A stretch of 64,000 nt of DNA from positions 46,520 through 110,519 of the IMG/VR virus record IMGVR_UViG_3300025387_000013, one strand, 5' to 3'. Made by a program: the position numbers and the translations under genes. The notes below the pieces were generated by a model. The model worked only from the letters and a program-made list of their open reading frames with translations, did no database searches and was not told the origin of the DNA. Positions within the stretch are counted from its first letter, which is position 1; each line of letters begins with the position of its first letter. Positions 3,001 through 51,600 of the stretch are shown here, piece by piece. The DNA comes from a virus. Lineage: Duplodnaviria; Heunggongvirae; Uroviricota; Caudoviricetes.

Positions 3001-3201
3001 TGTTTGAGCAGGAGCAGATCTCATAACACCCCAAGGAAGTCCTCCAGAATTAGAACTAGCAGTATCACCTTGATAGATCGGTAATTTTCCTAAATTAGGA
3101 TCAATTGGTTTTGTATCTGGTGATCTAAGATCTACATCAGGAACTTGTAAGTTACTAAGTTTAACCCCTTGATCATTTATGTCATTATCAAAAATTGGCA
3201 T
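1..3201 (-). CDS. Giant virion protein, partial (N-terminus at 3201, continues beyond window start). Tape-measure-like or ejected-protein candidate with glycine-zipper segments.
   Basis: ATG at 3201-3199 overlaps the stop of the upstream gene as TAATG. No competing ORFs of 60 aa or more on the minus strand across 1..3200, and plus-strand ORFs here are short. The translation has GxxxG-rich hydrophobic stretches (GIVGGFIAGAAV, MFTGAMLGLVTGAI) and coiled-coil-like regions. Not in the ORF track because no stop lies inside the window. Confidence 0.5.
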   Translation of the reverse strand, partial: MPIFDNDINDQGVKLSNLQVPDVDLRSPDTKPIDPNLGKLPIYQGDTASSNSGGLPWGVMRSAPAQTGFDQPFSAVRGSELMENKRYPMYERNADLEDLYARQQPWYKQMGNGLVKMGVGAVGTFAQSMMTIPDTANAIKSGKLSDLSGGVDGGVESKVSDWMKNMEDVFPNYISNYERQHPFKSILGSGFSNFIGDKIFKNIGIVGGFIAGAAVQDAAVGLITEGLGEIPLLANQIGKASLALNKFLTGSNDVEKVLSALGESERIAGRVLTEEQIGNVIKSGQLAEATKLKDGLKYTLAQYGSARTMGAVDARDTYSEVSKKLVEQYKSTHGDNDPTGKDLDDIHEYATNAMNTRFGIDMVLLNISNAIQFDNLFKSFGKASKALASGATQDLEGLGKIGLKEGSLDEFVKQGAKTAPGKIWESVKPKLPNIFAESVLTMGGMFAGGKGVEDYYTNKYKDLNDPNNKETFNSVNQLIKSTQFALGQQFGTTEGLDAMFTGAMLGLVTGAIHNGIDRSKGMSKDQRLNEAINVLNKHKVTSVLEGRYSDTLNSVNNAKEMQEAVKENNIFKYKNLQHDNFFDFVNSRLQTGMHDYTIEQLKMLKDLPKEEFEKFFGVDFSESNKQTTSEYIDKLIEHANELKKSYDAISGTFKNPYERFVNPKTEAEKEATNNYHNFEEWKTNLTYYSSVKVDVNDRISSIQENLYKLHPDLNNNLVAGIVNPSVLKNIAEGYEERAKLLNGSIHDDMTAAERQSVKDQIKSLRTNSEKINLALNSKNIDAKTFHDILNFELNGQDGSREDAVGFEHAANLYEYGHDLNGLAIQKKKASLAVDALTSAEGFEKFFDLANKMNEDIRFNTKDFKETAPEEKPAAPAGGLGGAPEGPKFTNKEGAQEPIELNRQYESSSVGKSTIAKIDEDRWQITAPNGTVSFASTEAKAQLKANEFNQDAQDLSNLKVIAFNEDGTVKVEDANGDIQNIPIDQLKGFDRVETRQEKLLKHAEEVAKVQKELEISSGDIATGSDEEDIAKLLQSQTYEDSKKNASTSLFLGTTTESEDKTWSGVDKS

Positions 3202-5939
3202 TACTTACTCTTTTTTAATATGTCTTGAATTGTTGCAGGTCCAAAATCATTCTGAATATAGAATTGTATATCAGCGGCAGATCTATATCCACCTGTTTGT
3301 GGAGCTGGTATCCAAGTTCCTTTATAATTTACATATGCATTCACTTGAAATCTATCAGTATCCATATCTCCAGTGTTATGGTGAGGATCTCCAACAATAT
3401 CCCATCTCACTTTATTCTCCCATCCACTACCTTGTAATCCAGGTATTTCATATCCTCTATGAGCAGCTCCAAGAGCATCGGTTGATTTATCTCCTCTACC
3501 ACCCATAGTGTTTGTAGTGGCATCTGGACTTGCTAATACAGCATGAAAATCTTCATTGTAAGGATTTCCTTTAGCATAGTCTGGATAGTATTTGGCAAAG
3601 TTTTCAGCAGTGACAGGAATTGTTTGTGTAGCACTTCCTTGATGTACAATGATCATTGCTGAGCCATCATATTTTTTTACAACATTTGCTGTAACATCTT
3701 CTTTAGCATCTCCTGATTTAGACCTCATTTTAGCAAGAGTATCTACATCAAATTTAGCATCAGTAGGAAGATTAGGTAATCCTTTTGAAACAGTGGCATT
3801 ATCAATAGCATTACCAATCAAATTACCCAACATAGCCATGTCACGTTCGTTCTTTGGATTTATAGTTCCAACTTGTTCTTGATAGAAAGGATCGTATTTA
3901 GATACAGTTTTAGCTACAGCATCAAATTTATCTTTTTCAATTTTCTCTACAATAGGGTCTGCAACTTTTTTAACATCTGTTAGTTTATTAAGTACTACTC
4001 TTTCATTAGCAGTTAATGACTGTCCAGATGTTTGTTTAATTAATGCTTTAGCAAGATATTGTTTTGTAGGATCGCTACCAACTTCTTTTAAGAAGTTATT
4101 TACATTAAATTCAGGACTACGGTTTACAGTAGATCCCCCAACAGATATTGTAGATCCTGTACTAAGATTTCTTTGAAAGGCTGCTTGCACATCCCAAAGA
4201 TCTCTACCTGTAGCTAAAGATTGACCATTAGCTCCTGTAATTCCTTTTACATTAGATAAAGATTTGTTTAACTGTTCTTCAAAAGGTTGTGCAGCCTCCT
4301 CAGCTTTTTTTTGTATATTTGTTTGTATAGCTGCTTGTCTTTCGAAAAAGTCTCTCTTATGTACATACTCTAATGCATCTCTATTTGTTACAGCTCCATC
4401 TCCAGATTCTTTATATTTATTATAAATATCATCTAATCCAGAATATGTAACTTTTCCATCTTTACCAACAGTTGGTGTTAACTTGAGAGTCTTTCCATAA
4501 TCATTATTCAGCTTATCAGTATCCTTTAAAATACTAGAAATATTATCCTTTACACTATTTAATGTAGGAGCTGTCATCTCTGTAGATATAGCTCTAGTTT
4601 CAGTAACCATTCCTTGTTCTGGATGTTCTAATTTTAATTTTCTTTCATTATATTCACGAGTCCGTATATCATTAAGTTCTTTCTGTCTAAGAGAAGCGTA
4701 ATCATAAACAAGCTTATTCATAGCATCTGAATGCTGTATGTCATGATAGCGTATTTCTTCTTGAATCTTAGCACGTTCCATATTCATTGCTGCATAAGGA
4801 TTAGCTAGAATTTCTTGTTTATAACTTTGATTAGAAAGATCTACAGCATTTCCTTGTAATAATTTATTTGTGTATTGTTGGTATTTAATATTTTCTAAGT
4901 TAGCTGGATTTTGTAAATTAGCTAGTGTTTTATTTAGTTCTTTATCAAGATCTCCACTATCTAATTTATCTTGATACTTTTTAATATCAGCTTGTATACT
5001 AAGTTTATCACTTGTTGTTAAATTAGGACTTGTTAATAAATCTACGTTTAATTTATTTATCTCCCTACCTATCATTTCTTTACCTAATTGAACATTATCT
5101 GTAGCATCTTCAGCTAGTTTTTTAATTAAAGTATCGCCAGAATGTCCTTGATACTGTGCAGCAGCATCTATTTTCAATTGTTCAATATCATCTGCATTCA
5201 AAGAATCTTTAAACGAATTATACATAGCTTGAGCAGAAACACCTTTTATAGTAATTCTTTTCATAGCATTGTCTTCTACAGGTTTTCCTCCACTAGAAGG
5301 ATCAGTTGACGTTGTTATATTTCCAGTTTTCTCATCCTGTTTAAAGTATAATGTTTTTCCAGACTCATCTGTTTTATAAGGATTTTCAATAGAATTATCA
5401 GGAGCATCTTTCTTTCTATTGTCAGCTATGTTTTGTAACTTCTTAGCAATATCTACATAGTTTACATACTTAGCATTAAATGAAGCATTTACATCTTGAT
5501 TATTTTGATAGCTACTAACTTTGTTACGTATATCATTTATATTATTAATAGATGATTTTCCAGCTTTGTATGCAGCTTCTCCAGTTTCAAGTTCAGTCTT
5601 AGCTCTTTGCGTAGAATAAACAGCATTCTGTATAACAGGATCTTTAACAATTGATGTTGCCATCCCTCCTACAGAATTAACTAACTGTTGATTAGAGAAG
5701 TCTCCAGCAGCAACAGTTTTTAATTTACCACCAAGTTCATCAAGCTTAGATTGTAGATATTTCTTTTGAGTCTCATTGCCAATATCCATTCCAGCCACAT
5801 TATCTATTTGTGTCTGAATCTTTTGCACACCCTGATTGTATTGGGCCTGTTTTTCCATACCAACTTGTACCATAGCTTGTATGGGAAGTTGTGCTACGTA
5901 AGGAGTGAATGGGGTTAATTGATCGGTAAATGATGCCAT
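3201..5939 (-). CDS. Large virion structural or internal protein (912 aa)
   Basis: Long ORF in the late minus-strand operon, contiguous with the giant-protein cluster. No recognisable catalytic motif. Confidence 0.55.
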   Translation of the reverse strand: MASFTDQLTPFTPYVAQLPIQAMVQVGMEKQAQYNQGVQKIQTQIDNVAGMDIGNETQKKYLQSKLDELGGKLKTVAAGDFSNQQLVNSVGGMATSIVKDPVIQNAVYSTQRAKTELETGEAAYKAGKSSINNINDIRNKVSSYQNNQDVNASFNAKYVNYVDIAKKLQNIADNRKKDAPDNSIENPYKTDESGKTLYFKQDEKTGNITTSTDPSSGGKPVEDNAMKRITIKGVSAQAMYNSFKDSLNADDIEQLKIDAAAQYQGHSGDTLIKKLAEDATDNVQLGKEMIGREINKLNVDLLTSPNLTTSDKLSIQADIKKYQDKLDSGDLDKELNKTLANLQNPANLENIKYQQYTNKLLQGNAVDLSNQSYKQEILANPYAAMNMERAKIQEEIRYHDIQHSDAMNKLVYDYASLRQKELNDIRTREYNERKLKLEHPEQGMVTETRAISTEMTAPTLNSVKDNISSILKDTDKLNNDYGKTLKLTPTVGKDGKVTYSGLDDIYNKYKESGDGAVTNRDALEYVHKRDFFERQAAIQTNIQKKAEEAAQPFEEQLNKSLSNVKGITGANGQSLATGRDLWDVQAAFQRNLSTGSTISVGGSTVNRSPEFNVNNFLKEVGSDPTKQYLAKALIKQTSGQSLTANERVVLNKLTDVKKVADPIVEKIEKDKFDAVAKTVSKYDPFYQEQVGTINPKNERDMAMLGNLIGNAIDNATVSKGLPNLPTDAKFDVDTLAKMRSKSGDAKEDVTANVVKKYDGSAMIIVHQGSATQTIPVTAENFAKYYPDYAKGNPYNEDFHAVLASPDATTNTMGGRGDKSTDALGAAHRGYEIPGLQGSGWENKVRWDIVGDPHHNTGDMDTDRFQVNAYVNYKGTWIPAPQTGGYRSAADIQFYIQNDFGPATIQDILKKSK

Positions 5940-6025: not shown

Positions 6026-9000
6026 TTAGATAGTTTTTAGAGCTTTCACAATAGAACCATTTCTTGCCTTAAGCTTAGCACCGTTCTTTTTAGATGATGA
6101 TTCTTTAAGGTCTTCATCAGCAGATTCTTTACTACCATCATCTTTAACAAATGTAGGTTTTATTACCACCTTGTATCCAGGATAGGAACCTTTAGCTGTA
6201 CCAGAACCAATAGATCCATTACCTTCTGTATTGAACTGAGTAGGAGCATTAACATTGTAAATCTTTCCATTAGGTCCATATCTATAGTTGTATCTATTTT
6301 CTTCAATTCCTAATGTTCTATTTTCTAATTTGTTCTGAGCAATTTTAGAAGCAATAGATTGAAGAGCTTGTTGAGGTATTTCTTTAGATTTACTCTTAGC
6401 TATAGATTGTCTTTCATATTGTTTATCTAGAATACCTAAGTTTTGTAACTGAGCTTGATTCATCATCTCTCTGTTTCTATTGTAAGTTTGATCAGCTGCT
6501 CCTTGGTTCATTCTAAATTGTTCTCCTAACACTTTATTCTTCATCTCTGCTGCACTAGCCATAATTTGAGCTTGAGCTCCAGGGTTTCTTCCAGCAGCTC
6601 TTATAGCAGCGTTAGATTGTGCATCTATAGAGTTTAATTGATCTTGTAGAGAGATACGTGAAGGTTGTCCTTGTAACATTGGTTGGAATGTTTGAGCTTG
6701 AACAGGCTCTATTTGGTTATTACCTAATGCATACATCTCTCCCATCAACTGATTAGGATCTAAAGGCATTTGATTTGTAGGTCTAGCATAGTCAAATGCA
6801 CTAGAAATAGCATCTGTAATTGCAGTGTTTTTGTCACCTTTCTTTTTATCTTTAGTTGAGAAAACACCAGGAAGAGGACCTTGATCATCTATTAAATTAC
6901 CAGCCTTATCGTAATAATTACCATCTATTTGTTTAATGTTTCTTGGAGAAGATGTAATATTTACATCTGGTAAAACCCCTGGTTGATAAGGAATAGTTGT
7001 ATAATTATCATCTTGTAATAATCTTGGGACAATAGTAGAAATATCAAATTTAGGAGAGTTGCTTGGAGCAAGAACACCATCTTGGGCTTTATTAAGCTTA
7101 GCTCCCATTTTAGCTTGTTTTAAATTTCCTTTCATAACATCTTTATTAAACTTATCAGAGTCTTCATATCCATATTCTTTGGCTGTATCTAGAATAGCAT
7201 TCTGAACATGTGCTGCAGCTTTTAGTTTTTCTGCATTAGCTTTTTGTTTTGCTGTAGCTCCCATCAACATAGCCTTACCAGAATTCAAAGCAAGCTGATC
7301 AAATGGTGTATTTTCACCTGAGTTGTTTACAATACTTGTAGCTCTATTTATAATTTGATTTTGTTTCTTATCGTTCTTAGCTATATCAGTAGCATAGTGT
7401 TTGAACTTTCTTCCTTCTGCTAATTTATCACCTATCTCATCAATTGCCCATTTAGGAATCTGCATATTACCATATACTACAGCATCTCCATCTGTATTTC
7501 CACCATCTTCAAATTTAGGTATTTTAACAACAGGTTCTCCACCTTCCACTTCTATCTGATTGTTTCCAAATCTTGTAGGCATTCCTCCATCATCATGAGA
7601 AGGTCCTCTAAATATGTTTAGCTCTCCTAGATATGGATTGTGAGAAAGAGTTTCAATCTTACCACGTCCTACTTCTAGGTCACCACCCATAGCTAATTGC
7701 GAACCATCTTCAGCAATAGGCATCAATGGTCTTTCTGTAGAAAGAGCTCTTGCACTTGGGGCTACATAATCTTCTTTTAAATGTCCACCACTTCTTAGCA
7801 TATCTGCATCATGTGGAGGTTGTAAAAGATCTTTAAGAGAATATTCTCCAAACTTAGTAATGGTTTGTGGTTGCCATGTATGACTGTTCCATTTATATTC
7901 ATCTCCTACATCTCCACCATTTCTTAAACTTGCAGAATTTGCAGCTTGCATCATTTTTGCCCCAGCAGCCACAGCAGCTCTTTGTGTATTCTGTGTTGTT
8001 TGGTTTTGATAGTTTGCTAATTTTCTAGCATCATCATCACCACCGAATATATTACCTGCACCAGTTCCTAATAGTCCACCAACAACTCCACCAATAGGAC
8101 CAAAGAACGCAGAACCTACAGCACTACCTATTCCTTTACCAATACTAGCTTGTCCTGAAGATTGAAAGAAATCACTAAATCCAAAATCAGCTTTTGGCAA
8201 TTCACCACCCTCTTCGTATTGTTTAGGAGAACTTTCATTTAAAGGTTCATAACCAAGATCATTATATAGGTTGTTAGGAGCATAAGTGTTTTGTATCTCT
8301 GTTGGATTACCGCTTATTCTAGTTCCATATTGAGCTAAATAGTTTGTTCCTACACCTGTAGGACTTCCTAATTGTCCAGGTTGTACTAATTGATCTTCAG
8401 GTCGTACATATCTATTCTGTTGTTTCTGAGCACGACTACCAGCAGCTTGAGCTGTTAATGCAGAGATGTCAGCTGTTTGTTCAGCACCTAATATGTTTTG
8501 TTTTTGCTGTTTCATTTGTCCAATCCCCTGTAGAATTTGAGGAGCAGCATTTAATACACCAAGTCCAGCAGCTCCAGCACTTCCAGCAAAACTTTTACCA
8601 GCACCACCCATAATTTTATCTGCACTACCAGCACCACCAAATATATTTGCAAGTTCATTACCTACACCACCTTGTTTCTGCGTAGCTGTGCCAAGAGCAG
8701 TTCCAAATGATGTAAGATCAAAACCAGACTGAGCTTTCTTTAACCTCTTACCATTCTTACCAAAAGCTGCAGCTCCTATTTCACTTCCTGCATCTTGAAG
8801 AGCACTATTTGTTGCAGCTGTTTTAGCCTGTGAAGCAAATGTATTTAGCAATGAACCAATACCACTACCAGCATTACTAGCAGTAGCATTACGTTGCATA
8901 GCTGCTTGCATGGCTGCTTCTTTCTGTTGCTCATCATATTGAGCTCTACTAACACCAGTGTTTGTAGCTTGAGCATTTGCTAATAGATCATTGAAGGCCA

Positions 9001-28776: not shown

Positions 28777-30330
28777 TTAGAATTGTGGAATCTCTTCAAT
28801 CAAAACTGTACGAGACAAATCTTCAATGAATACATCACAACGGTCTTTCATCCAGATTTCGTATCCTGGGAATTTGTTAGCACTTGACATACCTTGAGAC
28901 TTAGCAAAGCCTAAGTGGTGACGAGTACCATCAATATATCCCCAAGTCATAGAAGGTGCACCCTTCATACGAACTTCACGAATGTTGTTAATCATAGAAC
29001 CATCGCTCATTGGGCTCACATCAAATACCATGAATACTGGAGTAGATTTTTTGTTCTGTCCAAATTCAAGATTAGTTTGAGGAAGATCCAATTCTTTCAA
29101 GTGAATAAGTTCAACACGACCAGTCTCACGAGTAACCATTGCATCGAAAGCAAAGTTGTAAGTGATATGTTGACCTTCTCCTTGCATATATCTGTTACCA
29201 GAATCAGCCATGAAAGTAAGACCAGAGTTTAAAGCGTCATTCTTTAAAGCTTGTTGGAACACGTCAAAACCAGCTTCATTAGTGTACATTTTAACTCTAC
29301 GATCTTTAACATCAACACGTCTGTAGAATAAGTCACCAAACACTGAACGAATCAAGTTTGCAGTGAACTCACCACGATTGTATTGAACTAAGTTACCGTT
29401 ATTACGCATTCTGTGGTAAACACCAGCAGAAGTTCTTTTTAATTCTTGCTTAGAACCATTGGTCTTCACTGTACCAGGCTTAGCCCAGATCATACGCTTA
29501 ACCTTTAATTCTAACATAGATTTACGCATCCAGAACTCAATGAATGGTTCCCACTTAACATCATTACGAGTTAAAGGAAGTTGGTTACGTCTTTGAGGAG
29601 CATACACCAAGATATCCAAAGGTTTACCAGAAGCATCTCTCATCATTTTGTCATCAGCCCACTCAGTGATTTTGTGCTCATAACCATATGCAGAACCTAA
29701 AGATTCAAACATAGTAATTTGCTCACCTAAACGAGGAAGACCTAATAAGTCTTGATCAAACTCACCAATAGCTGCATCAACTAATTCTAATTCGATACCA
29801 ACTTTTAAGAAGGTTCCGTTTACATAGTCTACAGTTGGATTGTCAGTTACAAGAGTGAATGTGTATAAATATCCTACATTCCAAGGCTGAGGATCTTTAA
29901 CAACATAGAAACGAGGACCATACTGACGAGTACCTACAGATACAATTGCGTTCTTAGAAAACTCATTAGTATCAATAACTAAAGTGAATTCTTGACCATC
30001 AATACCTGGCTTATCTAAGTCTTGGGTACTGGTTGGAACATCAATGATTTTAGGGAATTTGTACGGAACTTGTACTTGCCACTTCCAAGCATCACTATTA
30101 TTATCAATATAGTAAGGAGTCGACTTGTTAATCATATCCAAGAAGTCATTACTGTAAAGAGAACTCTGAGTATAAAGACTGATAATTTTTTTATCATAGT
30201 CTGCTGGCTCAGTTGAGTGAAAACTCTCCAAGTGGTTTGAATCTGTTAATTTACCTACAGCTCGCTTATCCATAGAAGCGACTCTTGCGTAAGTAAAACC
30301 AGTTAAACCTGGGATTGTTTGAATTGCCAT
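28777..30330 (-). CDS. Putative major capsid protein (517 aa)
   Basis: Order terminase-portal-scaffold, then this gene. Size is typical for a major capsid protein. Followed by strong RNA hairpins, as is common after highly expressed capsid genes. Confidence 0.6.
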   Translation of the reverse strand: MAIQTIPGLTGFTYARVASMDKRAVGKLTDSNHLESFHSTEPADYDKKIISLYTQSSLYSNDFLDMINKSTPYYIDNNSDAWKWQVQVPYKFPKIIDVPTSTQDLDKPGIDGQEFTLVIDTNEFSKNAIVSVGTRQYGPRFYVVKDPQPWNVGYLYTFTLVTDNPTVDYVNGTFLKVGIELELVDAAIGEFDQDLLGLPRLGEQITMFESLGSAYGYEHKITEWADDKMMRDASGKPLDILVYAPQRRNQLPLTRNDVKWEPFIEFWMRKSMLELKVKRMIWAKPGTVKTNGSKQELKRTSAGVYHRMRNNGNLVQYNRGEFTANLIRSVFGDLFYRRVDVKDRRVKMYTNEAGFDVFQQALKNDALNSGLTFMADSGNRYMQGEGQHITYNFAFDAMVTRETGRVELIHLKELDLPQTNLEFGQNKKSTPVFMVFDVSPMSDGSMINNIREVRMKGAPSMTWGYIDGTRHHLGFAKSQGMSSANKFPGYEIWMKDRCDVFIEDLSRTVLIEEIPQF

Positions 30331-32263: not shown

Positions 32264-34849
32264 TTATTTAGATTTATTTCTACCTCTAGCATTAATCTTT
32301 GCTATCTCTATATCATCTTTATGATTCTTTCTTTCATTATCTAGTTTCTCTCTTTCCACTTTTATCTTCTCCATCGCTATATTACTCTTAGTTTGAATAT
32401 CCATAGTCTTGAGTCTATAATCATTGGCAGCTTTAGTTTGCTCATGCATCAGTCTACTATTCTCTAAAATATCTGGGATTGAATCTTGATTGACATCCAA
32501 AGGTACCTTTTCAATACTCTCAGCTTTGATGGTAGCAATTTGCTCTTTACTGATTCTATCCAATTGATTTTGGTAGTCATCATGAGCCATTTGCTCTTCA
32601 TGCTGTCTTTGAGCTTGTTGAATTTGAGCATCAGTGTTATATCTCTGTTGATCAATCTCTTGTTGTTTCTGTTGCATTTGTTGTTGCTGAATGGTATCTT
32701 GTTTATCTTTAAGATCTTTAAACACCTTCTTCATCTGACGTACAGAATTTGTAGAATACAATTCAATAATATCATATAAAGATCCACCACTCTGAATAAC
32801 AGTTTGAGACAGTTGTCTAATCTCATTAAACATTTTTTGATCTTCAGGTCTATTAGTTAAGAATACTTTTAAGTCTCTAAACTTAAGATCTGTACCATTC
32901 ACTGATATGAAAGCTGATTCACCAGAGTTAGTTACATAAGAAATAGTTGACTCAGGTTTCTTACTCTCTACATACATAGCAGCATCTATAATTGCTTGAT
33001 AGAGCTGACCTAATATATATTCGTGTGCAACAAATAAAGGTTCTGTCTGTGAATACGATTGACTGATAGCTGTATTTGTACCTGTAGCAGTTTCACTAGC
33101 TGATACTGAACCAAGTCTTTGTTTAGACATACCAACTAATTCCCAACACTCATTCTTAAGCTGTACAGCTAATTGATATCTAGATTGAATCTCTTGTGTA
33201 CGTGTAAGATCAATATCTCTAAATTGATTGAATGAACTAGGACTCTTTAAGTTCTCTGGAGAGTCATCAATAAACATCACTCCTCTATTACGTGCTTCCA
33301 TTTCCCATACATCAAGAGCATCTTGTGCATCTCCATCTTTAGGAATTGGTATGTGTCTAATAGATGTCAAATAAACTTTACCCACTTCTTTCTCAAGAAG
33401 TTTATAAAGCTGATTCATACATACATTATATAACACTTGGAAAGGCTTCATAAGATCTACTAAGCTCTTAGCTTCTGTATTCTTCACCTCATGAATCACT
33501 CCTATAATAGGACAATAGTCTAATAATTTATACGGTTTGATGTTATAGATGTCTGGTCCAATTTTAACTCCTTGATACCATTGATTAATCCATCCCCATT
33601 CTAAAGATTGCTCTGTAGGAATAGTTTTGGATTTATAACTTTCATCTACTAATAGAGATTGCTCATTACCCATTTCATCTAAATAGATAAGTTTTCCTAT
33701 CTTCTTTTTAGAAATCCAATAGGCTCTTACAACAACATATTTATATCCAAAGGAACTAACGTTAGAAGTTAGTCCTAAGAAATCTCTAAGTCCATCGTTG
33801 TTCTCTTTCATTTCAGATTCAATGATCATTCTTGTTTGTAGAACAAGAGGATCATATGTATCATATGTAACAGAGTCTATACCTGGAGTGGCATTAGGAT
33901 TACCAAGATTAGATTCACGTACATTAATCAATCCATAATCTTGAAGAGAGCTACGTAAGTGATCTATTTCATCTTTAGTTATATCAGGAAATGTTTCAAT
34001 AATCTCAGATAGTTCCATCACTTGTACTATACCAGCAGCATAAGCTCCTTGTGCACGACCTGTAGGATCTGAAATATATTTTCTATCTGGGGTTGTTAAG
34101 AACCAAACGTTCTTAGGATTGGCCACCTCAATATTAAATCCAAGTTTTGAATTATCTTCATATATATGAAAGAACTCTCTAGAAGAAATTAACAAATCAC
34201 GAAAAGCATCTTCTGACTTTTCTTTCATTACAAACTCGGCTTTCTGAGATGTAAGAATATGATTGGCCCATTTCTCAGCAACTGATGTATAAGAATCAAT
34301 TTGATCTTTTACACTCTCAAGAGTTTGTTGTTGAACCTGTGGATCGTTCTCATCTAACTCTTGTCCTTTTAATAAGGCTTCTATTTGCATTTTCTTCTTT
34401 GCTTCAGAGATCACATACTCTTGTAAGATTTGTGTCTTGAATTCAAGTTCTTCAGCCTGACTATCATCATCAAAAGCTTTCACTCTAAATGAATCTGGTC
34501 TTTTAGATATCTCACCAACTAGTTCATTTAAAGGAGTGGTGACAATAGAATACATTTTTACGTAAGCTGGTAATTGAAGATCTGCTGTAAGTACATCTGT
34601 AAAACTTCTTACCTGAGGTTCTTGATAGAAATCTTCCATTCTAAGGATACCTTTAACAAGATCATAGTTCTTAACAAATGTATCTCTATTCTTTACATAT
34701 TCAGCATAAGCTCTATTTGCAAAATAGTCCATTGTATTCTTCACCCAACTTTCATCTTGTTTTTCCTTATCAGTTTTAAACTGATCAGGGAATATATTTA
34801 AGTAGGCATACCTAATCGTTGCGTCTTTTGTATATCTTATAATTGCCAT
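32264..34849 (-). CDS. Putative portal protein (861 aa)
   Basis: Large ORF directly downstream of the terminase large subunit, its start overlapping that stop. C-terminal charged, Q-rich coiled-coil tail. Confidence 0.6.
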   Translation of the reverse strand: MAIIRYTKDATIRYAYLNIFPDQFKTDKEKQDESWVKNTMDYFANRAYAEYVKNRDTFVKNYDLVKGILRMEDFYQEPQVRSFTDVLTADLQLPAYVKMYSIVTTPLNELVGEISKRPDSFRVKAFDDDSQAEELEFKTQILQEYVISEAKKKMQIEALLKGQELDENDPQVQQQTLESVKDQIDSYTSVAEKWANHILTSQKAEFVMKEKSEDAFRDLLISSREFFHIYEDNSKLGFNIEVANPKNVWFLTTPDRKYISDPTGRAQGAYAAGIVQVMELSEIIETFPDITKDEIDHLRSSLQDYGLINVRESNLGNPNATPGIDSVTYDTYDPLVLQTRMIIESEMKENNDGLRDFLGLTSNVSSFGYKYVVVRAYWISKKKIGKLIYLDEMGNEQSLLVDESYKSKTIPTEQSLEWGWINQWYQGVKIGPDIYNIKPYKLLDYCPIIGVIHEVKNTEAKSLVDLMKPFQVLYNVCMNQLYKLLEKEVGKVYLTSIRHIPIPKDGDAQDALDVWEMEARNRGVMFIDDSPENLKSPSSFNQFRDIDLTRTQEIQSRYQLAVQLKNECWELVGMSKQRLGSVSASETATGTNTAISQSYSQTEPLFVAHEYILGQLYQAIIDAAMYVESKKPESTISYVTNSGESAFISVNGTDLKFRDLKVFLTNRPEDQKMFNEIRQLSQTVIQSGGSLYDIIELYSTNSVRQMKKVFKDLKDKQDTIQQQQMQQKQQEIDQQRYNTDAQIQQAQRQHEEQMAHDDYQNQLDRISKEQIATIKAESIEKVPLDVNQDSIPDILENSRLMHEQTKAANDYRLKTMDIQTKSNIAMEKIKVEREKLDNERKNHKDDIEIAKINARGRNKSK

Positions 34850-36876
34850 TATGTAAACAATTTATTTTTGTATTTTCTAGTTTTAAACATTCCTCTTGAT
34901 TCTGTAAATAACATATTAGCAGGTTTCTTATTAAACATAGCTAACACTCTTTGATCAGAAGATCCTCCTATCTTTCCCATAATTGGGTCCATCTTAAGTG
35001 CTTGAGCAATAGCTAGTTCTGCAGCAATGATTCGGTCAAAGTTACCCTGATCATTATATTGTATAATTTCTTCTAATAATACAGGATCAAATATCTTACT
35101 AACACCATGCACTTCTCTTATCACTTCTCCTTCATCATTTTTTTCTCTATGTAAAACACTCTCTAGGTATTTCTTCAAACAGGTATGTAAGAATTCTATT
35201 ATCTTATCACTAGAACGATGTATACCAAAGTCTCTTTTTACAGTGGTGTTTGGTACAATCTCCTTAAGCCAATCTGGTTGTTTCTCTAAATAATGAGCAT
35301 CTCCTTTAGCTTTCATATATTCTATAAAAGATATATCATCATTCTCACAGAGAGTTCTAGCATTGTAATATTTAATTAATAACCTAGCTTGTTCTTCCCA
35401 TGTATCTTTCTTATCTGGTCTAGCTACGTAAGACGCTACAAACATATCTTGGTATTTCTCACCTGATATTTCATGCATTCTCTTATATATGTATACAGCT
35501 CCTAAAGAACTTGAATAAGCTGATTTACCTTGTCTATAAGGATCGACTCCTGCTGTATATAATCCATAAGGAGGATTTTCTACAGGAAATTCATATATAA
35601 TAACTGGAGCATCTTTGAGATCACTATTCTTTAAGGGGAAGTTTGTTATGGGAGTTTTATCTGTAAACTCATGTTTGATTCCTGTATCATCTGTATATAA
35701 CACTACAGGAACTCCTGTTTTTTCTTGTTGTAAAAGTCTGAACTTTTGTCTCTTGGCTCCTTCAATATCAAATATATTTGTATCCTCATTTAAGAATATA
35801 TCATCTACATTCTGAGGATAGTACATCTTCTCTTTTAAATAAGCAATTCTGTCTCCAGCTTTTTTAAGTCTATCTAGATTTGCATTGGTTATCTCATCAG
35901 CTTTTTCTTGATTAGACACCAACATTCCAACAGAATGTAGCCCATTATCTTTGGGAAGTTCCAAATAAGCACCCAAAGAACTTTCTTCTTTAGCTTCCAT
36001 TCTGTATTTATGCCCAATGAAAAGCCCATGTATTCTGTTATCTTCTTTATTGTTGTATGTAAGGAAATTAAAATTATCTACATCAAACATCAGGGATTTT
36101 GCATCCATGAATTTCTTCATATCACCCCCAGTACCTGTAAGAATTGGACTACATCCCCAACCATAGGGTGTTGTGAAACCAGGTATAGCCGCTTGCAAAC
36201 CTCTGAGGAAGTTCCCCTTACCAATCTCGTCAATGATAAGTTTTCTAGGTTTGGTACCTGCAATTGCTTCTTCATTGTTACCTTCATCTAAGTTACGTAT
36301 TAATATAGAGGAGAATGGAATACGTTCTCCTGATTTAGTTTTAATTCCTAATGTCACTTGATTCTTCCAATTGTCTTCAATCCTCTGCCATCTCCAATAT
36401 TCAGGAATAAAATTTAATCCTTTATCAATCTTATCTGTAATTAATTTTATATCTGGAGCATTCAGGCCAGCAATAATATTCTGACTATTCTCATCAAATG
36501 TAGCTCCCCAGGCAATATAACTTGCCTCAATAACTGATTTAGCAAAACGTCTAATTCCTAATATTACAAGTCCTCTTCTTTCTGTCTGAGCTCTATCTAT
36601 CTCATTTGTAACAATCCATTCATTATCTCTAAGAAAAGGATTGGCATACTTTTGAGAGATTCTACCCCTATCATCAATTACATCCACTTCTGTATGCCAT
36701 ATATTTAGGTGCCAATATAAAAAGGGGTTAATATAAACCCCATCCATCATAGCACCATTTAGGCAAAGCTCTTTATGAAAATCAAAGAAAGGCTTATACT
36801 CAGAAGAATCTTTATCTGGAAGTCTTTTTTGATTTATGAACCAATCTTTATAATCTATATTTTGTAAATCATTCAT
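34849..36876 (-). CDS. terL: Terminase large subunit (675 aa)
   Basis: Walker A-like LVILGIRRFAKS and Walker B KLIIDEIG. C-terminal nuclease-domain acidic motifs (GVDPYRQG..). Its position heads the head-morphogenesis module. Confidence 0.8.
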   Translation of the reverse strand: MNDLQNIDYKDWFINQKRLPDKDSSEYKPFFDFHKELCLNGAMMDGVYINPFLYWHLNIWHTEVDVIDDRGRISQKYANPFLRDNEWIVTNEIDRAQTERRGLVILGIRRFAKSVIEASYIAWGATFDENSQNIIAGLNAPDIKLITDKIDKGLNFIPEYWRWQRIEDNWKNQVTLGIKTKSGERIPFSSILIRNLDEGNNEEAIAGTKPRKLIIDEIGKGNFLRGLQAAIPGFTTPYGWGCSPILTGTGGDMKKFMDAKSLMFDVDNFNFLTYNNKEDNRIHGLFIGHKYRMEAKEESSLGAYLELPKDNGLHSVGMLVSNQEKADEITNANLDRLKKAGDRIAYLKEKMYYPQNVDDIFLNEDTNIFDIEGAKRQKFRLLQQEKTGVPVVLYTDDTGIKHEFTDKTPITNFPLKNSDLKDAPVIIYEFPVENPPYGLYTAGVDPYRQGKSAYSSSLGAVYIYKRMHEISGEKYQDMFVASYVARPDKKDTWEEQARLLIKYYNARTLCENDDISFIEYMKAKGDAHYLEKQPDWLKEIVPNTTVKRDFGIHRSSDKIIEFLHTCLKKYLESVLHREKNDEGEVIREVHGVSKIFDPVLLEEIIQYNDQGNFDRIIAAELAIAQALKMDPIMGKIGGSSDQRVLAMFNKKPANMLFTESRGMFKTRKYKNKLFT

Positions 36877-46441: not shown

Positions 46442-46885
46442 ATGCCTACAATAGATATTCCAGATAAAATATGTCCTCATTGTGGTGGTACTAGATATAT
46501 AATTGAGAATCGAAAGAAACCAACTAAGTCTAATCCTAATAATGTTAGAATTAGATATAGATGTGTAGTTAAATCAAATGAAAGATATGCTAAATGGGCT
46601 ATAAATAATTTTGATAAACTTAAAGCATATAGAGAAAACTATATACCACATCCTAAACCAAAGGGATATTGGAAAACTCCTGAAATGAAAGAGCATTATA
46701 GATTAAAACATAAAAGAGAGTCTGAACAGCTCACTGATAATTTTGTTAAAAACAAAATATTAGGTGACTCAGGCAGTTTAGCAAGAACAAACTTATCATT
46801 TAAAGATATAACACCAGAACTTGTAGAACTTAAGCGTAAACAAATACAACTGTATAGAAGATTAAAACAAAATGGCAGCAGTTAA
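46442..46885 (+). CDS. Zn-ribbon protein, paralogue A (147 aa)
   Basis: N-terminal ICPHCGGTRY and C-terminal PELVELKRKQIQLY, both shared with the next ORF. Confidence 0.5.
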   Translation: MPTIDIPDKICPHCGGTRYIIENRKKPTKSNPNNVRIRYRCVVKSNERYAKWAINNFDKLKAYRENYIPHPKPKGYWKTPEMKEHYRLKHKRESEQLTDNFVKNKILGDSGSLARTNLSFKDITPELVELKRKQIQLYRRLKQNGSS

Positions 46886-47733: not shown

Positions 47734-47952
47734 ATGAAGAATCTAATAACGAAGTTAGTAGTTAAATCAAATGGTGAATACATTAAATGTAAAATAGAAG
47801 GCGATGATGATGTTTTAAGTTCTGTGGTTGCAGAACTTTTAATATCTAATGAAGCAGAAGGTAGATTTAGAGATATATTTACAGAAGCTGTAAAAGCAGT
47901 TGCTATTCATTTAGAAAAGAAATCTGCAAAGAAAACAAGGAAGAAGAAATAA
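47734..47952 (+). CDS. Hypothetical small protein (72 aa)
   Basis: ORF, followed by a terminator. Confidence 0.35.
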   Translation: MKNLITKLVVKSNGEYIKCKIEGDDDVLSSVVAELLISNEAEGRFRDIFTEAVKAVAIHLEKKSAKKTRKKK

Positions 47953-47953
47953 C

Positions 47954-47978
47954 AAAAGGGGGATTTATTTCCCCCTTT
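47954..47978 (+). terminator. Intrinsic terminator (AAAAGGGGGA..TCCCCC + TTT)
   Basis: GGGGGA/TCCCCC stem with a 6-7 nt loop and a T-run, directly after the stop at 47952 and 7 nt before the tmRNA 5' end. Confidence 0.6.
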
Positions 47979-47984
47979 ACATAT

Positions 47985-48455
47985 GGGGCTGTTATTGGTA
48001 ATTGATCCGTATGAGAATGGTAGTATCACATGCAAGACTAGGAGGAGTCAAACAACCTCTAAACAATAACCGCAAAGACTAAATCTGAGCGTGTTGCAGA
48101 AGGTGGAGCAATCATTGCTTCTCTTTTTGCTGGTCGTGTAGCAGTTGCTGCATAACCTAACGGAGTGGTAACAACTTGGCAACAGAAAGTTACAATGTGT
48201 GAAGACTAGACGAATTTTGGCTCGTGATTTTAGAGCTTACACAGTAGTATGCCAATACTACAAAATGTTTTCTTGGTAGTCATAAAACCAAGTGGTGGCA
48301 GTGTTGTACTTAACCGTACGACCCCAATACGGTGCAATTAGTAAGCTTATAAGCTGACTAATAGTACAAAGTTGTCAGGCTATAAGCTGACTAAGCATGT
48401 AAGAATGGTATTATGATTACTTACGGAGACAGGGGTTCGAATCCCCTCAGCTCCA
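47985..48455 (+). ncRNA. ssrA: tmRNA (ssrA), complete and phage-encoded
   Basis: 5' GGGGCUG pairs with 3' CAGCUCC-A and includes the G3:U wobble (Ala identity). The 3' region CUGACUAAGCAUGUA...GGAGACAGGGGUUCGAAUCCCCUCAGCUCCA closely parallels E. coli tmRNA (..GACUGACUAAGCAUGUAGUACCGAGG..GGACGCGGGUUCAACUCCCGCCAGCUCCACCA). AAACAAUAACC-GCA resume context matches E. coli AAAAAAUAGUC-GCA. Tag ORF 48072..48152 (27 codons, AKTKSERVAEGGAIIASLFAGRVAVAA) with stop at 48153-48155. Confidence 0.8.
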
Positions 48456-48461
48456 CAACAG

Positions 48462-48533
48462 TCTCAGGTAGCTCAATTGGTAGAGCCTTTAATTGTATTA
48501 AAGAGTGTGTGGGTTCAAATCCCATCCTGAGAC
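48462..48533 (+). tRNA. tRNA, probable Thr (UGU). Anticodon assignment is tentative.
   Basis: Acceptor TCTCAGG/CCTGAGA, D-arm GCTC-AATTGGTA-GAGC with G18G19, anticodon stem CTTTA/TAAAG with loop ATTGTAT, T-arm GTGGG-TTCAAAT-CCCAT and discriminator C. No encoded CCA. 72 nt, position 26 apparently absent. Confidence 0.6.
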
Positions 48534-48548
48534 CTAAATTAAACAATT

Positions 48549-48695
48549 ATGAAACAGTTATTAGCAATTTTATTAATTAGTGGATTAGCCAGTTGTGCTA
48601 CAAATATGTATGCATATAGAAAATGTCCTACAAATGACAAAAGATATTTTTATAATGAAATGGGTGCTAAAGTTCCTAAAGCATTTAGAAAATGA
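48549..48695 (+). CDS. Small lipoprotein (48 aa)
   Basis: MKQLLAILLISGLASC has a signal peptide and lipobox L-A-S-C. The stop overlaps the polymerase ATG (ATGA). Below the ORF-track size cutoff. Confidence 0.35.
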   Translation: MKQLLAILLISGLASCATNMYAYRKCPTNDKRYFYNEMGAKVPKAFRK

Positions 48696-49676
48696 ATGTA
48701 CTTATATATGATATAGAAACATTAAAGGAGCTGTTCCTTGTTGTTATTTATAATCCACAAACAGATGTTACATATGAATTTGCTGTAAGTAAATGGAATA
48801 ATCAATTAGATCCTTTCATTAGATTTACAGAACAACATGAAGACTATTATTGGGTAGGATATAACAATCTACGCTTTGATAGTCAAGTGGTTGAATATAT
48901 TATTAGAAACTATGAAGATTGGCAAACATTGAGTGGATTAGAGATATGTGCTAAAATAGCATTAAAAGCCTCTGATACCATTCATGATGCTAATTATGAT
49001 GTATTTCCTGAATATAGAGAAGAAGCTCTTAGTCTAAAACAAATAGACTTATTTAGAGTGAATCACTATGATAATAAGAATAGACGTGTTAGCTTAAAGA
49101 GATTGGAGTTTGAAATGGATCTTGAGAACATTGAAGAGATGCCTATTCATCATGAAAAGATTGATATGTCCAAAGAAGACATAGAAACTACTATCAACTA
49201 TTGTCACAATGATGTTATGGCTACTTATGAGTTTTATAAGGTGACTATTGGTGAAACTAATCATCCTCTGTATAAGGGCAATAACCAAATAGCTCTTAGA
49301 CAGGATATACAAGAAGAGTTTGGTATTCCTTGTTTGAACTATTCAGATAGTAAAATAGGGGATGAAATGATTAAGAAGTTTTATTGCCAGGAAAAGAACA
49401 TACAATACACTGCTCTACCAAAAAAAGGTACATTCAGAAAGAAAATCAGTGTAAAAGAATGTATTGCACCATATGTAGAGTTTATAACAGATGAGTTACA
49501 GCAGTTCTTAAAGAAGATTAGAAGAATGAATCTTACAATACAAGATGATTTCAAAGAGAGTTTACATTTCTATAATAATGTATACACATTTGCAAAAGGT
49601 GGTCTTCATACAGAAAATAAACCTAAAGTGTTTGAAGCTAGTGAGGATACATTTATTATTGATTGGGATGTTTCGT
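48692..49676 (+). CDS. Family B DNA polymerase, exon 1 (3'-5' exonuclease domain to start of motif A)
   Basis: Exo I (LIYDIETL) and Exo III-like (YCHNDVMATYEFY) motifs. Ends ..IIDWDVS, the first half of Pol B motif A DxxSLYPS. 5' splice site after U49676 is predicted from P1 pairing GUUUCGU/GCGAAAC with a terminal U-G. The ORF track runs on to an in-intron stop at 49696. Confidence 0.65.
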
Positions 49677-50632
49677 TAACAATATGGCGAAACTAAAATT
49701 CCTTAAATTGACGGGAACCTCCTTAGAGCTTAATCTACCAAATTACAGTAGAAATACATATAGTGGCTGAAATAATTACTCAGGTATGGTAAAAAAGATT
49801 AAGATTGGACAATCCGCAGCCAAGGGTCTATAGTGAAATAGATCAAGGTTCAGAGACTAAACAGGGAACTTTAACTATTAATTAATTTAAGTGCCTTGGT
49901 TCTATCCATGTAATTACATATATTTGTAACATGAAATTAGATAGAAAACAAGACTTAAACCGAAGTGGTATATATTGTATAAGAAACAAAGTAAATAATA
50001 AAGTTTACATAGGAAAAGCTGTATGTGTTTATAGAAGGATCAGACAACATATCAATAATCTGAATAAAAAAAACAGAAAAGAAGAAAATGATCATCTTAT
50101 AAATGCTTGGCATAAATATGAAAGAGAAAATTTTGAATACTTTGTATTAGAATATGTATCAATTGACCAATTAAAAGAACAAGAACTATATTGGCAAAAA
50201 ATCTACAAGTGTACTGATAGAAGTAAAGGATATAATTTTAGAGAAGATTCTGAAACAGGTTGTATTGTTTCTACAGAAACAAGAAAAAAACTTAGTGAGG
50301 CTCAAATTAAAAGATTTTCTGATCCAAAAGAAAGACTAAAATCTAGTCATACTCATTGGAAAGATAATCCAGAAGCTACTAAAGAAATGGCAAAAAAAGT
50401 TTCAGAAGCTAAAGTAAAATATTACATTGATCAGTATAGTAAAGATGGAAAATTTATAAAAAGATGGAATTCTGTAAAAGAAATTACAGAACAAAATCCT
50501 TCTTATAAATGGCAGCAAATATACTCAGTTTGTTCAGATCACAAACCTTCTATGTATGGGTTTGTCTGGAAAAAAGAATTAATAGTTAAATGATGATATA
50601 GTCCAGCTATAGTTGAAAGATTATAGATTAAG
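49677..50632 (+). mobile_element. Group I intron carrying a GIY-YIG homing endonuclease, interrupting the DNA polymerase gene
   Basis: Conserved core elements: P-like AAATTGACGGGAAC (about 49712), Q AATCCGCAGC (about 49813-49822), R GGTTCAGAGACTAAAC (about 49847-49862) and S GATGATATAGTCC (about 50596-50608). IGS GGCGAAAC. P9 hairpin CUAUA..UAUAG. Terminal G50632. P10 CAUA/UAUG. Confidence 0.7.
49931..50593 (+). CDS. GIY-YIG homing endonuclease (220 aa), intron-encoded
   Basis: SGIYCIRNKVNNKVYIGKA ... YRRIRQH ... N (GIY-10aa-YIG with R and H), then a basic DNA-binding tail. Lies between the R and S elements. Confidence 0.75.
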   Translation: MKLDRKQDLNRSGIYCIRNKVNNKVYIGKAVCVYRRIRQHINNLNKKNRKEENDHLINAWHKYERENFEYFVLEYVSIDQLKEQELYWQKIYKCTDRSKGYNFREDSETGCIVSTETRKKLSEAQIKRFSDPKERLKSSHTHWKDNPEATKEMAKKVSEAKVKYYIDQYSKDGKFIKRWNSVKEITEQNPSYKWQQIYSVCSDHKPSMYGFVWKKELIVK

Positions 50633-51600
50633 CATACTATCCAGCTATTATTATTAACAATGAACAATATCCTGCACATTTAGGAAAAGAATTCTTAAGA
50701 GGATATAAGACAATGTTTGATAAGAGATTGGAACTTAAGCCTTTAGCTAAGAAAGATAAGAAGATAGCAGGTATTGTTGGTGCTCTTAAACTTGCTGTAA
50801 ACTCTGTATATGGTAAGAGTTCTGATATGCAGAATTGGATTTATGACAGAAGGCTTACCATGTTTACCACTATTACAGGTGAATTGAGTCTTTTAATGTT
50901 AATAGAACAATATGAACTACGTGGAATTCATGTTATTTCAGCTAATACAGACGGTGTCACTATAATGGTGAAAAAAGAGCAATTAGAAATAATGAAAGCC
51001 ATCAATACGTGGTGGATGGATATTACTAAATATGAGCTAGAACGCACAGACTATCAAAAGATTACATTCTCAACAGTTAATGATTATCTAGCTATTAAAA
51101 CTAATGGAGATGTTAAAAAAAAAGGTGATTTTCTCACAGATTTTGAACTACATAAAAATAAATCTGCTAGGATTGTGCCTATGGCTCTTGAGCAGTATTA
51201 TGTTAACAATATTCCTATTGCTGACACTATTACCAATCATACTAATATATATGACTTTGCGTTAAGACAGAAAGCTAGTAAGGATTTCCATTATGAAGGA
51301 CTTACAGATATTAGTAAAACAGTGTACAATAAGCTAATTCGTTATTACATATCTAAAACAGGAGAGAAACTGTTGAAGGTTAAGAATGAGAATTCTGATT
51401 CTAATGCAGCTAATATTAGTCAGGTGGAAGCAGGAGAATGGGTGATGACAGTGTGTAATCATTTAACACAAGATCATCCTCTTAACAATATCAATTATAC
51501 ATATTATATAGAAAGAGCTCAAAGAATCATTGATAAGATACAATATGAGGGTAGAAAAAAGAAAGTCAATATTGACAAAAATCAACTTTCCTTATTTTAA
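50633..51600 (+). CDS. Family B DNA polymerase, exon 2 (motif A second half YYPAIII, motif B KLAVNSVYGK, motif C-like ISANTDGV)
   Basis: The frame stays open upstream of the first Met (50713) to 50632. KxxxNSxYG motif B is present. The 3' splice site assignment is inferred. Confidence 0.6.

Follow-up and report, generated by a model that had tools for sequence, protein, structure and literature searches.

The 64,000-nucleotide stretch of viral DNA analysed here, hereafter the window (positions 46,520 to 110,519 of IMG/VR record IMGVR_UViG_3300025387_000013), almost certainly carries a genuine phage-borne gene for transfer-messenger RNA (tmRNA, gene ssrA) at positions 47985-48458. Judged from its sequence, the gene encodes a functional-looking standard tmRNA with a long tag that is specific to its phage lineage. 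The standard tmRNA model of Rfam (RF00023) aligns to all 474 nucleotides on the plus strand and spans the whole model (positions 1-374 of 374), with a score of 70.9 bits (E value 1.4e-25) against a gathering score of 47. An acceptor stem, a T-arm, a first pseudoknot, a resume codon and a tag reading frame are all present, which bears out an earlier note, made from the letters of the DNA, that had claimed a complete tmRNA here and proposed the Rfam comparison. The match is co-linear: the 3′ half of the acceptor is not encoded before the 5′ half, as it is in the permuted form of the gene, and the permuted tmRNA model has no match in the window, though it matches the phage cr7_1. The T-loop is uninterrupted, and the group I intron model (RF00028) has no match in the window. 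Maturation probably leaves the discriminator A at 48455, followed by an added CCA, as the 3′ end.

The structure of this RNA is maintained by selection. A 7-bp acceptor stem (GGGGCUG/CAGCUCC) closes the ends of the molecule in the manner of tRNA-Ala, the T-arm carries a GUUCGAAUC-type loop, and a long helix, P2, replaces the anticodon arm and joins the tRNA-like domain to the remainder (Table 1). These helices were analysed in a gapless mini-alignment of 20 distinct family members, comprising the acceptor, the first seven pairs of P2, the CAUGC/GCAUG pairing and the T-stem. Paired cells make up 95.6% of this alignment, compared with 76.7% after shuffling and 44-52% when the partners are slid, and the covariation score of 0.514 is reached by none of 500 shuffles (0.153), slid partners giving 0.076-0.132. 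Double-sided changes are seen in 17 of the 24 aligned pairs. All seven acceptor pairs form in all 20 members, four of them with double changes, and the G3:U70 pair is invariant (20/20); the T-stem is 100% paired, with double changes in four of its five pairs, while P2a and CAUGC/GCAUG are 91% paired, with double changes in 9 of 12 pairs. The mean duplex energy of P2 is −16.9 kcal/mol for cognate strands and −9.4 kcal/mol for non-cognate ones, a difference of about 7.5 in favour of the former. An exhaustive search for H-type pseudoknots gave the first pseudoknot (PK1) a score of 22, versus about 0.2 in shuffled sequences, and the same H-type architecture, with differing sequences, recurs in 24 of 25 family members. 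Candidate helices and conserved motifs are also visible in the region of pseudoknots 2 to 4 (PK2-PK4), which is too variable to align.

The program ARAGORN, whose use the earlier note had also proposed, calls only the adjacent tRNA-Thr(UGU) in the native sequence and no tmRNA. When 55-120 nucleotides of the pseudoknot region are removed, it calls a tmRNA with the identical tag and a coding part at 88-171, so that this check fails on the native gene and succeeds on the trimmed one. Since the trimmed gene is called, the miss reflects a length limit of the program, exceeded on account of the long spacer between tag frame and P2, and not a structural defect. Within the family, all members of 426 nucleotides or less are called and none of 446 or more. 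The missed genes are that of the window and those at loci L002, L004, L074, L077, L079, L082, L086, L089, L090 and L091. A tmRNA gene of this length is lost to phage surveys and annotation pipelines that depend on ARAGORN; phage tmRNAs have mostly been counted with this program, which is blind to members of at least 446 nucleotides, so that their true frequency in uncultured phages is probably higher than such counts suggest.

Translation of 48072-48158 gives AKTKSERVAEGGAIIASLFAGRVAVAA*P, an internal frame with an in-frame stop codon and a C-terminus (...AIIASLFAGRVAVAA) made of a hydrophobic residue and two alanines, here VAA. This matches exactly the 27-residue tag that had been claimed, which is long, as the note had said: tmRNA tags most often have 10 residues (PMC11915505). 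It is also unlike the native 9-residue tag of Bacteroides, GETNYALAA (bioRxiv 10.1101/2025.03.18.644028). Tags of this RVAEG type occur in 18 distinct members, with the consensus (A/D)KTQSERVAEGEAILASIFGEVA(V/I)AA. None diverges as far as the window tag, which has G for E, I for L, L for I and an additional codon. The frame is open in all 18, insertions and deletions affect whole codons only, and TAA, TAG and TGA are all used as stop codons at an unchanged position. Leucine is encoded in the tag family by CTT, CTG, TTA and TTG, and the resume codons of the family all start with G (GCA, GCT, GAC, GTA and GGC). Across the 18 members, the ratio of non-synonymous to synonymous variation (pN/pS) is 0.34 for the whole tag and 0.16 for a 13-codon core, a codon-level pattern that indicates purifying selection on the core, RVAEGxAI(L/I)AS(I/L)F, as a peptide.

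The last three residues behave differently from the core. Otherwise near-identical tags end in LAA (L072 and L087), VAA, IAA or MAA, which looks like neutral variation within one degron class. The earlier note had taken the VAA end as atypical and as a possible sign of weakened degradation by ClpXP, a view that finds no support: the chlamydial tag naturally ends in VAA, and GFP carrying a VAA tag is degraded by ClpXP while the VDD variant is not (PMC9601184). Going by the aligned sequences, the distinctive feature of the tag is its conserved internal core rather than its final three residues, and this core probably holds a second recognition element for an adaptor or protease besides the terminal (L/V/I)AA.

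Homologues were retrieved from IMG/VR by three routes. A 20-mer from the 3′ part of the gene gave 5 contigs, a scan with the polymerase protein gave 66 related phage loci, and a tag-core pattern, CGTGTNGCAGAAGGTGNNGCNATC, with 20 specified bases coding RVAEGxAI, gave 21 viral loci, every one of which is a tmRNA of the window's family. The family numbers about 25 distinct tmRNA homologues of 350-658 nucleotides, all in phage contigs. The earlier note had named an identical ssrA on a host chromosome among the observations that would speak against its claim; a comparison with bacterial ssrA by scanning this one tag pattern in the GTDB representatives (one genome for each of 185,579 bacterial and archaeal species) gave 11 matches, in Bacillus, Nonomuraea and Novosphingobium among others, and none of them is a tmRNA.

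By their flanking genes, the carriers fall into two groups of phages. The window-like group includes L005, L023, L032, L056, L065, L078, L083 and L087; in L005 the tmRNA lies between the same neighbours as in the window and the DNA polymerase is 93% identical. The tmRNA was found in 4 of the 28 polymerase loci with a full 6 kb of upstream sequence, within the stretch that was fetched, and at least one more lies farther off, so it is an accessory gene in this group. In the second group the flanking genes are almost without detectable similarity to the proteins of the window, and no SmpB, protease or adaptor was found among 10 conserved tmRNA neighbours. In 16 loci of the second group the tmRNA is followed, on its own strand, by three open reading frame (ORF) families of unknown function (166-188, 51-78 and 83-87 residues), none with a Pfam or PHROG match or SmpB-like by these searches; the loci with such downstream families, about 0.5-4 kb away, are L001-L004, L072-L077, L079, L080, L082, L085 and L089-L091.

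Long tags of other types are carried by further members; these end in ...EGAMIINMAFANVAVAA (L065) and ...GASIINMAFASVELAVAA (L005) or read VELSTMDFDGLMAFVGGELEMAA (L032), DNSNVELSNYTVESLFAELECSELELA (L003) and GNTNVDLSEYTVDSLLAELEAEAVLA (L002 and L004). When the window gene (47985-48458) is compared with its counterpart in L005 (7007-7386 joined to 8054-8074), identity is 99% over nucleotides 1-84 and 94% over nucleotides 301-474, but falls to 46% across the tag frame and to 29% across the PK2 region. Such mosaic identity indicates that a cassette of tag plus PK2 has been exchanged between near-identical backbones. The tag of L088 resembles a hybrid of two types (GTSNVD followed by RVAEG...).

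Two relatives carry introns. L005 (contig IMGVR_UViG_3300028392_000477) has a 667-nucleotide group I intron in the T-loop (7387-8053) with an ORF for a LAGLIDADG endonuclease of 134 residues (7649-8053), and L065 has a 258-nucleotide group I intron (3106-3363) at an identical subsite, after the UU of UUCGAAU or UUCGACU. The RF00028 scores are 86 and 96 bits, respectively. Introns at this T-loop position, subsite 3, have been reported in tmRNA genes only from the class Bacteroidia (PMC11915505).

We consider it reasonably probable that the gene is a genuine tmRNA of a lytic crAss-like phage that acts in ribosome rescue and tagging, by a mechanism that can be outlined from the features above. 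The RNA would be transcribed with the neighbouring early or replication genes, that is, with the upstream ORFs and the downstream tRNA-Thr, then trimmed by host RNase P and 3′ processing enzymes and supplied with CCA. Host alanyl-tRNA synthetase (AlaRS) would charge it with alanine; in the infected cell, host SmpB and EF-Tu would carry it to ribosomes that have stalled on mRNAs broken or lacking a stop codon. The ribosome would resume at GCA 48072, add (A)AKTKSERVAEGGAIIASLFAGRVAVAA and terminate at UAA, and the freed ribosomes would serve phage translation. Truncated proteins would thus receive a C-terminal ...AVAA degron for host AAA+ proteases, and the conserved tag core may give a second contact. 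Dependence on host factors is proposed because the domain scan of 74 window ORFs, which did not take in a few others including capsid, portal and terminase, gave no match to the SmpB, Clp or Lon families. Roles in ribosome rescue and tagging have already been proposed for other phage tmRNAs (PMC9004378, PMC7162821).

Several observations weigh against this reading of the gene and its tag. The retrieval pattern fixed 20 nucleotides of the tag core, so that conservation of the core is partly built in. Within the tag frame lies a hairpin whose stem persists in 17 of the 18 RVAEG-type relatives. These include one case in which both sides of the stem have changed in compensation (GAUGC/GCAUC), linking an E-to-D codon to a synonymous change in an Ala codon. 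Part of the nucleotide conservation may be due to this hairpin, and selection may act on the core as RNA as well as peptide. Folding the PK2-PK4 region with nested pairs only gives no improvement over shuffled sequences (z = −1.2). The search for SmpB and proteases covered 64 kb of a genome of about 116 kb. CCA is not encoded, the 3′ end reading ...CUCCA-CAA, and only 2 of 25 relatives encode it. CCA can be added post-transcriptionally in the maturation of tRNA and tmRNA, however, and its absence from the gene is for that reason not disqualifying. Finally, a G+C-rich hairpin precedes the gene, and no recognisable promoter lies directly upstream, the nearest TAnnTTTG on the plus strand being about 1.2 kb away. 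The earlier note had placed a terminator 7 nucleotides upstream; the hairpin is there, at a distance of 6 nucleotides, and it scores as terminator-like on the minus strand only, the plus-strand T-run being short; it may serve as a terminator, an attenuator or a processing site.

The alternative with the best standing broadens an idea of the earlier note: rescue occurs, and the long tag with its conserved core gives tagged proteins a fate other than that of host-tagged ones, such as another protease or adaptor, slower degradation, or targeting to membrane or aggregates. This is possible, though it is not the outcome we expect. The core is conserved above the termini and is common to phages with unrelated flanking genes, tag cassettes have been swapped between near-identical tmRNA backbones, and the long tag of Mesoplasma florum offers a precedent, its specificity having moved from ClpXP to Lon (PMC9382460). 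Yet the canonical (L/V/I)AA end is kept, and with it an end that is ClpXP-competent on a reporter in Chlamydia (PMC9601184); searches beside the gene revealed no phage adaptor or protease in either group, and the conservation of the core may partly be an effect at the RNA level or of the retrieval pattern.

A more specific proposal, which seems to us unlikely from the sequences at hand, is that the tag is a phage-specific, exchangeable peptide module whose conserved amphipathic core, RVAEGxAILASIF, would have a reader different from that of the short host tag. If this were true, infected cells would sort phage-tagged rescue products apart from host-tagged ones, and cassette swapping would reflect selection, possibly an arms race, on the recognition step. 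In any event the family amounts to a natural experiment on tag function, in which the core of a 26-27-residue peptide is kept in unrelated phage backgrounds while the last three residues drift among LAA, VAA and IAA and cassettes are exchanged. Should the core bind a specific adaptor or protease, it could provide an orthogonal degradation tag for Bacteroidota and a route to studying how lytic phages handle ribosome stalling. At present the result stands as a firm annotation that also opens a comparative lead.

It is quite improbable that the RNA serves mainly as a decoy that titrates host SmpB or AlaRS and shuts down host trans-translation, the tag being irrelevant. Such a role has been proposed for the RNA of mycobacteriophage DS6A, which encodes little beyond a tRNA-like domain, a type of molecule that inhibits tmRNA (PMC4131195, PMC11915505), and the lack of a phage SmpB in the window implies competition with host tmRNA for this protein. 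A decoy would need neither a conserved open frame nor a stop codon, however, and here PK1, the resume context and the 27-codon frame are complete, the frame being under purifying selection at the peptide level.

Recent capture of a host ssrA, or an attachment-site (att) remnant of one with no role in the phage, is very improbable. It is true that ssrA is a common target of integrative elements, which often take pieces of the gene with them (PMC9004378, PMC4383910), that phage tmRNA is presumably of bacterial descent, and that the intron subsite of L005 and L065 is otherwise known only from Bacteroidia (PMC11915505). Against this, the gene is full length and not a 3′ fragment, a scan of 74 window ORFs revealed no integrase, and about 25 distinct phage contigs, belonging to two groups by gene content, preserve the RNA through compensatory changes; the tag pattern matches no tmRNA across the 185,579 species genomes and the tag itself is unlike that of Bacteroides (bioRxiv 10.1101/2025.03.18.644028). 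We therefore rejected host capture, and the claim of the earlier note that this is a phage gene and not an attachment-site fragment stands, with phage genes on both flanks and synteny in relatives. That the gene is decaying or unexpressed, with the upstream hairpin terminating transcription, is hardly credible: the hairpin ends 6 nucleotides before the gene, a promoter-like box is lacking just upstream, unlike in six relatives, and CCA is not encoded, but the hairpin is without a proper plus-strand T-run, all structural elements are intact, L005 has the identical arrangement of hairpin and tmRNA, and the tRNA-Thr that follows relies equally on upstream transcription.

Compared with known systems, the window gene is a well-supported new example of a phage tmRNA and not a new kind of system or mechanism. 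It resembles the standard bacterial form, such as Escherichia coli SsrA (tag AANDENYALAA), in G3:U70, T-arm, P2, PK1, a resume codon starting with G, a tag ending in two alanines and a pseudoknot spacer, and differs from it in being phage-encoded, in its 474 nucleotides, in its 27-residue tag and in lacking an encoded CCA. Phage tmRNAs are known but rare, as the earlier note had said: a survey of 18,146 phage genomes counted 402 with a tmRNA, of which 133 were unique (PMC9004378), a share put at 2.3%, and they are known from the mycobacteriophage Bxz1 group and Bacillus phage G (PMC4131195) and from huge phages (PMC7162821). Like the window gene, these are complete ssrA genes of virulent-type phages without an integrase of their own, with a presumed role in ribosome rescue during infection; the window family differs in coming from uncultured crAss-like and other phages and in having a conserved tag of its own. 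A nucleotide search of 50,697 deposited phage records with the tmRNA and tRNA found no match, nor did a tblastn search of deposited phage genomes with the consensus tag, and the matches of the more divergent member L002 among deposited phages were confined to the T-arm and acceptor of other phage tmRNAs or tRNAs.

Within Crassvirales, tmRNA is annotated by RefSeq in the gut crAss-like phages cr7_1 (NC_055895) and cr124_1 (NC_055899), of Burzaovirus. Their T-arm and acceptor are about 90% identical to those of a member of the window family, but the gene is a circularly permuted, two-piece one (RF04321, 66 bits) with a 13-residue tag, whereas that of the window is standard with a 27-residue tag; the permuted genes lie at L103 2449-2805 (NC_055895.1 20629-20985) and in L104 (NC_055899.1), and ARAGORN gives the tags DNVNNIVDYTNVA and GNVNNIVDYTNVA for them. 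Crassvirales thus hold both forms of the gene. The Methylophilales phage Melnitz and pelagimyophages also have a complete ssrA, of the two-piece form, in an early-gene neighbourhood, for which the same functional hypotheses have been put forward (PMC9004378); the Melnitz tmRNA is permuted, derived from Alphaproteobacteria and linked to a glutamine riboswitch, none of which applies to the window, where an Rfam scan found tmRNA and tRNA only. The long tags of Mollicutes, of which that of Mesoplasma florum is read by Lon, and the VAA tag of Chlamydia show that long tags and VAA ends are natural (PMC9382460, PMC9601184), and the window tag has no sequence relationship to either. Intron-bearing tmRNA genes (PMC11915505) resemble those of L005 and L065 (T-loop, subsite 3), but the published cases are bacterial, and the window gene is intron-free. 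We found no earlier description of the family's long conserved tag, its spread over two phage groups, the swapping of tag cassettes or T-loop introns in phage tmRNA genes.

Table 1. Coordinates of the tmRNA gene, its structural parts and other features of the window
Feature	Position	Strand	Basis or remark
tmRNA (ssrA), one-piece standard form, 474 nucleotides	47985..48458	+	RF00023; ARAGORN after trimming; about 25 distinct phage homologues
Acceptor stem, 5′ strand GGGGCUG, including G3 of the G3:U70 alanine identity pair	47985..47991	+	pairs with 48448-48454
P2, 5′ strand; its last five nucleotides, CAUGC (48029-48033), pair with a GCAUG close to the 3′ end	48006..48033	+	covariation, duplex energy
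PK1: stem 1 GACU/AGUC, stem 2 GGAGG/CCUCU, just 5′ of the resume codon	48036..48060	+	pseudoknot search
Tag frame: resume codon GCA, 27 codons, stop TAA, encoding AKTKSERVAEGGAIIASLFAGRVAVAA	48072..48155	+	translation; ARAGORN 88-171; Rfam alignment of the resume region
Hairpin within the tag frame, GGAGC-AAUCAUU-GCUUC, 5-bp stem	48105..48121	+	stem-loop scan
Spacer rich in pseudoknots (PK2-PK4 region), where variability is highest; holds the family motifs GGUGGUGG and ACGGUGCA	48156..48390	+	alignment
P2, 3′ strand (GACUAAGCAUGUAAGAAUGGUAUUAUGAUUACUUACGGAGAC)	48391..48430	+	pairs with 48006-48033; holds the 20-mer that first retrieved homologues
T-arm AGGGG-UUCGAAU-CCCCU (48431-48447), acceptor 3′ strand CAGCUCC (48448-48454), discriminator A 48455	48431..48455	+	read from the sequence
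G+C-rich hairpin AAAGGGGGA-UUUAUU-UCCCCCUUU	47955..47978	+	after the stop of ORF 47734-47952; 6 nucleotides before G1 of the tmRNA
tRNA-Thr(UGU)	48462..48534	+	ARAGORN; Rfam tRNA, 54 bits; starts 6 nucleotides past discriminator A 48455
DNA polymerase, split	48692-49696 and 50713-51600		GIY-YIG endonuclease gene between the parts
Major head protein	28777-30330	-	protein annotation
Portal	32264-34849	-	protein annotation
Large terminase	34849-36876	-	protein annotation

The gene content identifies the carrier as a crAss-like phage with a Crassvirales gene set. Pfam families in the window include CrAss_Ring_1, CrAss_Ring_2 and crAss001_48, and the terminase is 40% identical to that of Leptolyngbya phage Lbo-JY46, 34% to those of Cellulophaga phages phi4:1 and phi17:2, and about 27% to those of crAss-like gut phages. 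The tmRNA lies within a run of small plus-strand ORFs immediately before the polymerase, not at a genome end or in an integration module. The polymerase protein is also found on a contig of 116,062 bp (ena:ERZ27271995:k141_36432) with an identical local gene order. The tRNA-Thr is probably co-transcribed with the tmRNA, to be freed by tRNA processing enzymes; L005 shares this arrangement, and the hairpin upstream is identical in L005, the closest relative.

The host is probably a member of the Bacteroidota, given that the carrier is crAss-like, that six relatives have TAnnTTTG boxes and that the introns of L005 and L065 lie at subsite 3. In L023, L032, L002, L004, L075 and L090, this Bacteroidota-type −7 box is found 9-20 nucleotides before the mature 5′ end, against a chance expectation of about 0.5 cases calculated from the background frequency in the window, where the box is not enriched (92 observed versus 91.9 expected). 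These boxes are a weak hint on the host. A conserved terminator hairpin (CCCCGGUGUUUCUACACUGGGG plus a U-run) lies downstream of the tmRNA in many members of the second group and is absent at the window gene.

The scan of the window ORFs also found FtsJ-like and TRM5/TYW2-like RNA methyltransferase domains, a histidine phosphatase and an SPFH/Band 7 protein; RNA-modifying enzymes near phage tRNA and tmRNA genes might act on those RNAs. Between the two halves of the polymerase sits the ORF of the GIY-YIG homing endonuclease (49931-50593), where no Rfam intron model matches. In L032 and L087 the polymerase segments are about 80 nucleotides apart without an endonuclease, and one ORF spans both.

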